Positions 46,306 to 48,372 of a stretch of DNA of 64,000 nt are shown piece after piece. The DNA is taken from assembly GCA_965202625.1 (NCBI GenBank), contig CBDBBI010000010.1, positions 2,441,142 through 2,505,141 on the forward strand. The letters are read 5' to 3'. Below the pieces are notes generated by a model, which saw only the letters and a program-made list of their open reading frames with translations, did not search any database and had not been told where the DNA came from. Position numbers and translations under genes: made by a program. Positions within the stretch are counted from its first letter, which is position 1, and each line of letters starts with the position of its first letter. This stretch comes from a bacterium (GTDB lineage: Bacteria; UBA8248).

Positions 46306-46478
46306 GGTGCCGCGCGCATGAAGATAGGCGAGGAGACGGGGACGCTCGCTCCGGGCGACATCGCCCACATTCCGGCGAACGCGGTGCATTCCTGCGAAAT
46401 TCTCGGCGATGCGGACTACGTCTTCGTCACGGCGAAGGACACCTCATGAGGCATCGGGGGCGTGAAGGTTTGAGGGGG
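46306..46478 (+). pseudogene. duplicated 3' fragment of the bicupin gene (last ~55 codons; TGG->TGA nonsense 4 codons before native stop)
   Basis: Near-identical to 43838-44010; joined to the pdxH fragment across shared GGT(G/A)CCGCGCG microhomology. Confidence 0.8.
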
Positions 46479-46525
46479 GAGGTTTGTGAACCGCAAGCCC
46501 TGTCGGGTTTTGCTGGCTTGTTCAC

Positions 46526-47005
46526 TTAATTTGTTTTCCTTATCTTGATTGCTTCTTCCACTACATTTGATAAATGCGTTGAAATCCAGGCATATACTTC
46601 GTGGCTATTCCTTCCTGCCGGCTCATAACATTTGACCAAGTGTGAGAGATACAGAAAATCAAAAGGATTTTGCCCTTTTCCCGAACTATATCCTTGACTA
46701 TCTTTTAATCCATGAATATGGATACCCACGATGCCCATACCCTGTTTCCATGACTCTATTATTTCATAGTTAATCCATTTTCTGCCTGCGGTATTTGTTC
46801 CAACCAAAACAACAGTGCAAGATCTATACTGCATTTGCTCGTCAATCCACCGTTTTATAGCGTTTTCGCCGCCTCTTTTGACTTGCTCCCAACCGTTATC
46901 AGATGTTGGTTCGTTTCCCTCAATAACGCCTATATTGCGCACTTGGGCCACACGCCAACTGTCTGGCTTATAGTCAAAACTGTAGAACACTTGTCTTTTT
47001 GTCAT
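46526..47005 (-). CDS. TIR-like domain protein, Thoeris ThsB family (DUF1863-type)
   Basis: MTKRQVFYSFDYKPDSWRVAQVRNIG ... SCTVVLVGTNTAGRKWINYEIIESWKQGMGIVGIHIHGLKDSQGYSSGKGQNPFDFL matches ThsB block-for-block (KRVFFSFHY..D..RVN.VRN.W ... VLIG..T..R.WV.YEI..S...G..IIGIHI...KD..G...SKG.NPFD.L). Gene is markedly AT-rich relative to the chromosome. Alternative starts at 47029/47152. Confidence 0.8.
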   Translation of the reverse strand: MTKRQVFYSFDYKPDSWRVAQVRNIGVIEGNEPTSDNGWEQVKRGGENAIKRWIDEQMQYRSCTVVLVGTNTAGRKWINYEIIESWKQGMGIVGIHIHGLKDSQGYSSGKGQNPFDFLYLSHLVKCYEPAGRNSHEVYAWISTHLSNVVEEAIKIRKTN

Positions 47006-47129
47006 GACGGTTTTCCTTTTTATTCTCATGCTCCTCCACAATAAATTATTGCGAACACTAAAAAAATGAAGAAAAACTCCACCAAATAAAAAATGAAAAG
47101 AGTTTGAGAAAAAATAGCGGATGACCCGA

Positions 47130-47513
47130 CTACATTTCAGGTTTGTTTCCATGTTTCATCACGTCCATCTTGAAATCTGTATCGGATTGCACCCTGATCT
47201 CGTCATATACTTGCCGGAAAAGTCTTTCCTGCCAGAGAAAATATCCGTCCAGCCACCAGAACCCTATAACGGGTGGAATAAGGAGAAGAACAATAAACGG
47301 ATTTTGTATCTCGCTCCTTGCAGTCAAGACTATGGCGGCGACAATGACAGTCATGCTCCAATTTTTCACGAGAAAGGAGTTGTTGCCCAAACGGTTGATA
47401 ATGGCTTGGGTCATTTCCAGGTGTTTGATGACCTTCTCTGTGCCGTTCATATTCTCGCTCGCCGGCCAGCAATTTTCTGATTGAGGTTGGCGTTGCTCGT
47501 CTTTGTCTTTCAA
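47130..47513 (-). CDS. small 2-TM membrane protein (SLATT-like architecture), putative effector partner of the TIR protein
   Basis: 127 aa (TTG start; alternative ATG at 47450): amphipathic helix, TM1 WSMTVIVAAIVLTA, short loop, TM2 PFIVLLLIPPVIGFWWLDGYFLW, C-terminal helix; overlaps/abuts ThsB-like gene, same strand, same AT-rich block. Confidence 0.4.
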   Translation of the reverse strand: MKDKDEQRQPQSENCWPASENMNGTEKVIKHLEMTQAIINRLGNNSFLVKNWSMTVIVAAIVLTARSEIQNPFIVLLLIPPVIGFWWLDGYFLWQERLFRQVYDEIRVQSDTDFKMDVMKHGNKPEM

Positions 47514-47676
47514 GATTTGAGCGCAATCCCAAAAGCGAAACTACACCACGAAATCACATGGCTACTACAAAAGATATAGTGTTTGTCAAGTGCGCGCATA
47601 TACCGCATGTTTGATTTTGTTCTTTGTCCGCAGGGTGCAGCGCATAAAGGGATAGGCCCTCACGGGGCGAGGCGCT

Positions 47677-48372
47677 CTATCCGCCAGCCGCCGTCCGTCT
47701 CCAGGGCGTAGCGCACGCGGTCGTGGAGGCGGCTGTCCCTGTGCCGCCAGAACTCCACAGAACGGGGGTGAGGAGGTAGCCGCCCCAGCCCGGCGGCCTC
47801 GGTACCGCGCGGCCCGCGTATTTCTCCTCCGCCTCGCGCGCGCCTCGCTCAAGAAACGCCCTGTCGCGTATCGCGCGGCTCTGGGGGGAGGCCCACGCGC
47901 CTGTCTGGCTGCCGCGCGGGCGGGAGGCGAAATACGCGTCCGAGACTTCGGCGGGCAGTTTTTCGGTCACGCCCTCGGCGCGCACCTGCCGGCCCGCCTC
48001 TTTCCAGTGAAAGACGAGGGCGGCTCTGGGGTCGCCCTCCAGGTGTGCGGCCTTGTCGCTCTCGTAGTTGGTGAAAAAGAGAAAGCCCGGCGCATCGACC
48101 CCCAGAGTTTCCGGATCCTTATACAGGACGATCCGGGCGGCGGGAGCACCGTCCGGCTGGACGGTGGCGAGCGTCATCGCGTCTTCGCGGTGAATTCCCG
48201 CGCTTTGGGCCTGGGCGTACCAGCGGCGAAACTGTGTGATCGGGTCGCGCGCGACGCGTGCCGCATCCAGATCTTCTGCCGCCATCTTCCGAAGCAGATC
48301 GTCGTTCATGGCGCTCCTCTGCGGTGTTTGCGCATTCTCGGGCGCGTCGGCCCGCGTGGGGTTCTCGCCCAT
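47677..48372 (-). CDS. pdxH: pyridoxamine 5'-phosphate oxidase PdxH, with -1 frameshift ~35 codons before the native stop (native stop at 47650-47652)
   Basis: FMN-binding split-barrel motifs (ARIVLYKD..., [10 protein letters not shown], ...[11 protein letters not shown]); after [10 protein letters not shown] the frame departs from the conserved ...[12 protein letters not shown]...RLAP end, which is intact in the duplicate at 46161-46305 (GGGGCACGAGG there vs GGGGGTGAGG here). Confidence 0.75.

Follow-up and report, generated by a model that had tools for sequence, protein, structure and literature searches.

The stretch of DNA that we analysed, 64,000 nucleotides long and hereafter called the window, contains an AT-rich islet of 1.18 kb (46480–47656, GC 0.425). 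The islet, delimited by its composition and by repeat boundaries, sits where two convergent genes, cupin and pdxH, face each other, between their stop codons. It holds only thsF and thsB, two co-oriented minus-strand ORFs within 46526–47513, and this block has a GC content of 0.40–0.43, against 0.63–0.69 in the adjacent flanks and 0.599 over the whole window. A scan of the islet for promoters and terminators gave nothing above chance. The neighbouring genes encode the cupin, PdxH, an AAA_15 ATPase, three ankyrin-repeat proteins, FtsH, a MetE-like protein and MetH. An earlier note on this DNA had held that the partner of the TIR protein is neither the SIR2-SLOG nor the TM-Macro ThsA of described Thoeris types. 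This proved right: the islet comprises two genes only, and no SIR2, SLOG, Macro or other ThsA-like gene was found among the ORFs examined within ~10 kb.

The thsB gene (46526–47005, minus strand) is apparently intact and encodes a ThsB-family TIR protein of 159 aa; a second possible in-frame start is the ATG at 47029. The assignment to ThsB, already proposed from the letters of the sequence, is borne out by matches to Pfam PF08937 (E=7e-27) and to the PADLOC ThsB model (1.4e-65). The protein shares 37% identity with the TIR domain of the Bacillus cereus type I ThsB, and the alignment sets its W-I-N-Y-E-I against R-Y-E-I of the B. cereus protein, so that a catalytic-type Glu is conserved. We take the Glu of this YEI motif to be the catalytic residue E85 of the Thoeris literature. 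The protein is a short single domain with no sensor or effector fusion.

As encoded, thsF is broken. Its 5′ part (47130–47450, minus strand) specifies 106 aa. All homologues start at MNGTEKV, which corresponds to the ATG at 47450, and the 21 residues ahead of it are unconserved; the 127-aa effector read from a TTG in the earlier note is thus an over-extension. The 106-aa product opens at its N terminus with an amphipathic helix, continues through TM1 and TM2 and closes with a cytosolic helix and loop, and its hydropathy profile has two hydrophobic segments only, at about residues 30–48 and 48–68. It matches positions 1–105 of the family HMM with 203 bits and is terminated by a premature TAG at 47132–47130.

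A MAFFT DNA alignment with nine homologous loci located two separate +1 insertions in a short frameshift zone (47125–47139, minus strand). The first, at CC(T/G)AAA, falls at 47139 or 47138 and produces the premature TAG; the second falls within a CGGG run at 47127–47125 and lengthens the G run. They are spaced by ~10 nt, and neither extra base occurs in the aligned homologues. In the other frame, a 3′ remnant of thsF (47026–47136, minus strand), recognised by translation and by the family HMM, encodes TM3 (SSAIFSQTLFIFYLVEFFFIFLVFAIIYCGGA). It matches family HMM positions 109–135 at 47136–47029 (E=8e-6 within the window). Its stop codon, TGA at 47028–47026, overlaps the ATG at 47029 that is in frame with thsB, giving the ATGA arrangement of homologous operons. 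When all six frames of the window were scanned with the family HMM, positions 1–105 were recovered at 47133–47540 and positions 109–135 at 47029–47136, and no other copy of the family was found.

An intact allele of 140 aa, P0121, reads exactly as the repaired thsF of the window (…KPKCSRSSAIF…), and its C terminus is identical to the TM3 remnant. It belongs to the same 90% cluster and has a third hydrophobic segment at residues 111–140; its source is a close relative, in which one 18-kb contig carries both this allele and the gene for the neighbouring cupin. Real substitutions separate the window allele from P0121 (SEIQNP versus SEMLNP), so the window represents a distinct strain.

The third helix is a family trait. 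About 13 aligned full-length homologues (135–162 aa) carry ~30 more C-terminal residues, which form a third hydrophobic helix with the consensus KPKCSW.SAIFSVTL.IFY.VE, and this helix is also present in most columns of a 110-sequence alignment. The full set of three TM helices is therefore incomplete in thsF as encoded and is restored only by conceptual repair. The effector had been described as natively 2TM, a description that does not survive the comparison: all of the ~13 aligned homologues have the third TM, and the window ORF has its 2TM look because the frameshifts, two insertions of 1 nt relative to the nine loci, cut TM3 off. Judged from its sequence, ThsF lacking TM3 is most likely non-functional, and the system is most likely decaying.

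Searches with the thsF ORF of the window returned 722 homologues at E≤1e-3. Among the 120 matches listed, all are 135–162 aa long and 68–80% identical, the one exception being P0001, the window's own 106-aa product. In an exhaustive profile search the number of cluster representatives rose to 4,249 at E≤1e-3, of which 2,297 also pass E≤1e-10; among the 150 listed, the majority measure 130–145 aa. We found no SLATT domain among the Pfam matches of the window protein (E≤1), of 14 close members (E≤10) or of 110 diverse members (E≤0.01), and in PADLOC the window effector matched PDC-M50A alone, with no SLATT model. The SLATT-like character ascribed to the effector earlier is thus contradicted at each of these levels. 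Pfam gave only sub-threshold matches for the family, to DUF3278, 8xMP and DUF2270. The DUF2270 model (PF10028) matched neither the window protein nor its 14 close relatives at E≤10; five of the 110 diverse members matched it weakly, with a best E of 0.004, well below the cut-off. We do not take the sub-threshold matches to DUF3278, 8xMP and DUF2270 as membership, and SLATT, DUF4231 and other 2TM effector families were rejected as giving no matches.

An AlphaFold2 monomer model built with the 110-sequence alignment (pLDDT 95.7, pTM 0.86) consists of three long helices, residues 3–45, 51–86 and 115–137. Among solved structures, nothing similar to it was found beyond generic helical bundles. The effector has no recognisable ligand-binding domain besides its own helices. 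The near-invariant residues of the family (R20, K29, R79, E75, D68, H10 and Q15) sit in the N-terminal amphipathic helix and in the helix after TM2. The positive-inside rule would place them on the cytoplasmic side, and we regard them as candidates for a ligand pocket. One family member, P0226 (378 aa), carries a SLOG cluster-2 domain (PF18163, 1.7e-15) fused to a C-terminal ThsF module at residues 246–374, a domain combination that supports a role for ThsF downstream of a nucleotide signal. In P0191 (362 aa), which is also long, the N-terminal domain carries no annotation.

Thoeris types V to XI were validated in a survey of TIR operons (Yirmiya et al., bioRxiv, 3 December 2025, doi 10.64898/2025.12.03.692087). 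According to that preprint, type V consists of ThsB and ThsF, the latter being described as a three-TM, DUF2270-annotated protein that is modelled as a homo-heptameric channel, its basic pockets lying where protomers meet; type VII is a combination of TIR and SLATT proteins, the latter named ThsH. [quoted passage not shown] A second type V system is described there as giving no response to added 3′cADPR. Experimental demonstration of type V defence and of 3′cADPR production is confined to the Bacillus systems. In Table S1 of the preprint, TIR proteins of the window's type are labelled 'DUF2270 - Type V', as are the two other TIR types met at related loci (TIR-a and the 222-aa upstream TIRs, see below), and the window ThsB is 61% identical (2e-72) to a TIR protein carrying that label. 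The ThsB of the window belongs to a TIR clade different from that of the B. thuringiensis ThsB.

We took the ThsB sequence of B. thuringiensis DAR 81934 from Table S1. It is identical to P0276, which is encoded at locus L092 (GCA_900108905.1, FNYB01000013.1, 4001–5198). Immediately downstream of this validated ThsB lies a 141-aa gene, which we call ThsF by adjacency and by consecutive IMG gene numbers rather than from a deposited ThsF sequence. Its product is 40% identical to P0121 over the full length (BLASTP 1e-29), scores 216 bits on the 110-sequence family HMM and 113 bits on a second family HMM, and matches the PADLOC model PDC-M50A at 1.8e-48. Hydropathy profiles have three hydrophobic segments both in this B. 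thuringiensis ThsF and in the intact allele P0121. The precomputed Pfam record of L092 is empty for both ThsB and ThsF. The two plasmid-borne proteins that best match the B. thuringiensis ThsB, at L090 and L091, have no ThsF next to them.

The two proteins of the window are adjacent matches to both component models of PDC-M50 in PADLOC-DB v2.0.0 (PDC-M50A, 1.9e-31; PDC-M50B, 3e-60). In the library searched, no paper mentions the name PDC-M50. Since the validated ThsF matches PDC-M50A at 1.8e-48, PDC-M50 is type V Thoeris, and by sequence homology the effector of the window is a ThsF homologue. The 'DUF2270' label given to ThsF in the preprint rests on the clustering of that study and is not reproducible with the current Pfam model. 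The locus is very probably a member of a system already described, listed as a PADLOC candidate in 2023 and validated in December 2025, and probably inactivated here. Of the minimal, undescribed Thoeris variant proposed earlier, one half stands, namely a TIR protein paired with a small membrane effector and no ThsA, an arrangement recovered at 43 of 80 related loci. The other half falls, the pair having been described both as PDC-M50 and as type V with ThsF.

Conservation of the pairing was assessed by a locus scan with one genome per species, which yielded 80 loci, nearly all from MAGs. Poribacteria, Binatia and Nitrospirales are the chief sources, and other loci belong to Latescibacterota, Opitutales, Gammaproteobacteria and further groups. 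A same-strand TIR gene starts within ~1 kb of the effector at the 43 loci just mentioned and is drawn from four TIR families; at 34 of the 80 no TIR gene starts within ~3 kb. In a common layout the effector is followed by two TIR genes, TIR-a and TIR-b, the second being of the window's type. This arrangement, thsF with two ThsB paralogues, occurs at L051, L052, L055, L057, L064, L073, L077 and L085; at some such loci a further TIR gene, of 222 aa, precedes them as the third, and the window has TIR-b alone. The family is also present on 136 plasmids, 40 of them from Klebsiella and 36 from Escherichia, and an adjacent TIR gene was seen on all three plasmids inspected (Priestia, Klebsiella and Campylobacter; L087–L089). 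The search for the same gene pair in other genomes, suggested with the original proposal, thus recovered a conserved pairing. A ThsA-like gene was sought as well, and the neighbour-gene clusters of the 80 loci contained no SIR2, SLOG or Macro gene. An HMM search of the 86 loci L001–L086 found no TIR protein of the B. thuringiensis ThsB type.

ThsF proteins with 51–83% amino-acid identity to the query occur in MAGs of at least 12 taxonomic groups (loci L007–L086), which also take in Terriglobia, Fibrobacteria and Dehalococcoidia. This spread of similar sequences points to recent cross-phylum transfer. Together with the GC difference from the flanks, it upholds the view that the AT-rich block was horizontally acquired.

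The islet is one of two. A duplicated flank block (46161–46479), made of a copy of the pdxH 3′ end (46161–46316) and a copy of the cupin 3′ end (46305–46479) and defined by repeat families D1–D3, parts the thsF-thsB islet from an ATPase islet; its junction lies on a 12-nt microhomology, CGGT(G/A)CCGCGCG. The microhomology is found in both genes, at 43837–43848 and 47800–47811, and the layout across 43837–47811 runs from the cupin end (43837–44011) through islet 1, the pdxH-end and cupin-end copies and islet 2 to the pdxH end (47657–47811). Two origins are suggested by this arrangement: a tandem duplication mediated by the microhomology, after which the cargo was replaced, or the integration of a circularised piece of DNA derived from a related strain. 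An artefact is improbable, since a 51-aa ORF of the duplicated cupin end is on record from a different assembly.

The neighbouring islet (44055–46057, minus strand, GC 0.55) encodes a 509-aa AAA_15/AAA_21 ATPase that matches PADLOC PD-T4-4_A (3.6e-35) and PDC-M47A (1.5e-28); overlapping the ATPase gene is an ORF of 158 aa that matches PDC-M47B and HSDR_N weakly. The pair resembles PD-T4-4 or PDC-M47 and probably forms another two-gene defence system, one that combines an ATPase with a nuclease. On the other side, pdxH (47677–48372, minus strand) has an apparent frameshift near 47768, ~30 codons before its end, through which the canonical …EFW..RLHDR..RLAP C terminus is lost; the orphan duplicated pdxH fragment at 46164–46316 keeps the correct frame. 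The pdxH frameshift may be a scar left when the insertion took place, or else the assembly may be wrong at this point. Further away, three consecutive ankyrin-repeat genes (310, 413 and 896 aa) occupy 37758–42443 on the minus strand. Clusters of ankyrin-repeat genes are typical of sponge-associated symbionts, and the host looks like one, in agreement with the many Poribacteria, Binatia and Nitrospirales MAGs that hold the closest ThsF homologues.

Set beside known systems, the window resembles type V Thoeris in being a two-gene operon of a ThsB TIR protein and, after repair, a three-TM effector of ~140 aa, and in having a TIR clade that appears under type V in Table S1. It departs from the B. 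thuringiensis system in gene order, thsF preceding thsB where B. thuringiensis has thsB first, in the clade of its ThsB, in the frameshifted thsF that as encoded lacks TM3, and in its sponge-symbiont-like host. Both component models of PDC-M50 are matched, PDC-M50 itself being a bioinformatic candidate only. Type VII, in which ThsB is paired with the SLATT protein ThsH and the signal is canonical cADPR, offers a likeness in that a TIR signal is read by a small membrane-spanning effector that, in the case of ThsH, is likewise predicted to oligomerise; unlike ThsH, the window protein and its relatives have no SLATT signature. With type I (ThsB and a SIR2-SLOG ThsA) the window shares a ThsB TIR protein, as the identity to the B. 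cereus domain indicates, whereas the SIR2, SLOG or Macro effector genes of types I and II (the latter with a TM-Macro effector) are absent in and near the islet.

We consider it very probable that the locus is a type V Thoeris operon, thsF-thsB, acquired horizontally between cupin and pdxH of a GC-rich genome, and probable that its thsF has been inactivated. In an intact system, by analogy with the B. thuringiensis homologue, ThsB would sense phage infection and convert NAD+ to a cyclic ADP-ribose isomer, 3′cADPR in the B. thuringiensis system. The signal would then bind the small three-TM ThsF, for which a homo-oligomeric ring is predicted, with pockets of positive charge where protomers meet. 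Binding would disrupt the membrane, the infected cell would stop growing or die, and the infection would be aborted. Whether 3′cADPR would be the signal made by the window's ThsB clade is uncertain, because that clade differs from the B. thuringiensis one and because the second type V system was unresponsive to 3′cADPR. The homology of both genes, their order, the frameshifts and the conserved pairing are observed directly, and the oligomeric pore and the loss of function proposed for thsF are, like the signal, what we infer.

The reading that competes most directly with inactivation is that the operon is intact and functional, and that the thsF insertions and the pdxH frameshift are assembly or polishing errors in a low-GC, strain-variable islet. 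The closeness of three frameshifts, the thsF pair and the pdxH one near 47768, within ~0.7 kb would suit such errors, as would the unbroken state of the long genes checked elsewhere (FtsH, 613 aa; MetH, 1,262 aa; ankyrin, 896 aa; ATPase, 509 aa), the perfect preservation of TM3 past the shifts and the extension of a G run by one of the insertions. The other insertion, at CC(T/G)AAA, extends no homopolymer, however, and the substitutions relative to P0121 are real and mark a distinct strain; toxic effectors, moreover, commonly become inactivated. On balance we think this account unlikely, though it keeps a substantial share of the probability. Should the frameshifts be real, the signal of the intact ThsB might still be read by a ThsF or a different protein encoded elsewhere in the genome, or the truncated 106-aa product, with its two TM helices, might have a modified function, both of which we regard as improbable. 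If true, reading in trans would fit the 34 of 80 loci that have an intact thsF and no nearby TIR gene; TIR producers and ThsF readers would then form a distributed network, spread across phyla in sponge microbiomes.

Two further readings concern the nature of the proteins themselves. The TIR protein could be an NAD+-depleting effector as in CBASS, Pycsar and pAgo systems, with the membrane protein acting as a sensor or anchor or being unrelated. Some bacterial TIR proteins do act in this way, according to the type V preprint (doi 10.64898/2025.12.03.692087), and the loci at which the membrane gene stands with no adjacent TIR gene could be taken in its favour. That preprint also reports that the validated type V ThsB alone makes 3′cADPR on infection, and the system-dependent toxicity of 3′cADPR and the effect of Tad1 described there also speak against depletion, as do the short, single-domain, unfused form of the window ThsB and the existence of the SLOG-ThsF fusion P0226. 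We judge this reading very improbable. Scarcely any credence can be given to an undescribed minimal Thoeris variant with a native 2TM SLATT-like pore former. The encoded ORF does have two TM segments flanked by an N-terminal and a C-terminal helix, and systems of TIR and SLATT proteins exist as type VII; but the searches of close and diverse members and of PADLOC returned no SLATT match, the aligned homologues have a third TM helix, the frameshifts cause the truncation, and the family is that of ThsF and PDC-M50A.

Inactivation of a horizontally acquired type V operon remains our preferred reading, and the locus alone matters little, the pair having been in PADLOC since 2023 and the family having been validated as type V in December 2025. 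If both thsF insertions were assembly errors, the system would be intact. Two points bear on annotation: type V systems will be missed by annotation that relies on Pfam, because its current models fail to assign ThsF to DUF2270, and a frameshift at the 3′ end can make ThsF resemble a '2TM' protein. The locus also illustrates cleanly how two small defence islets can be stacked within one convergent housekeeping pair and joined at a microhomology, and the relatives of its ThsF, at 51–83% identity, circulate among phylogenetically distant sponge symbionts.
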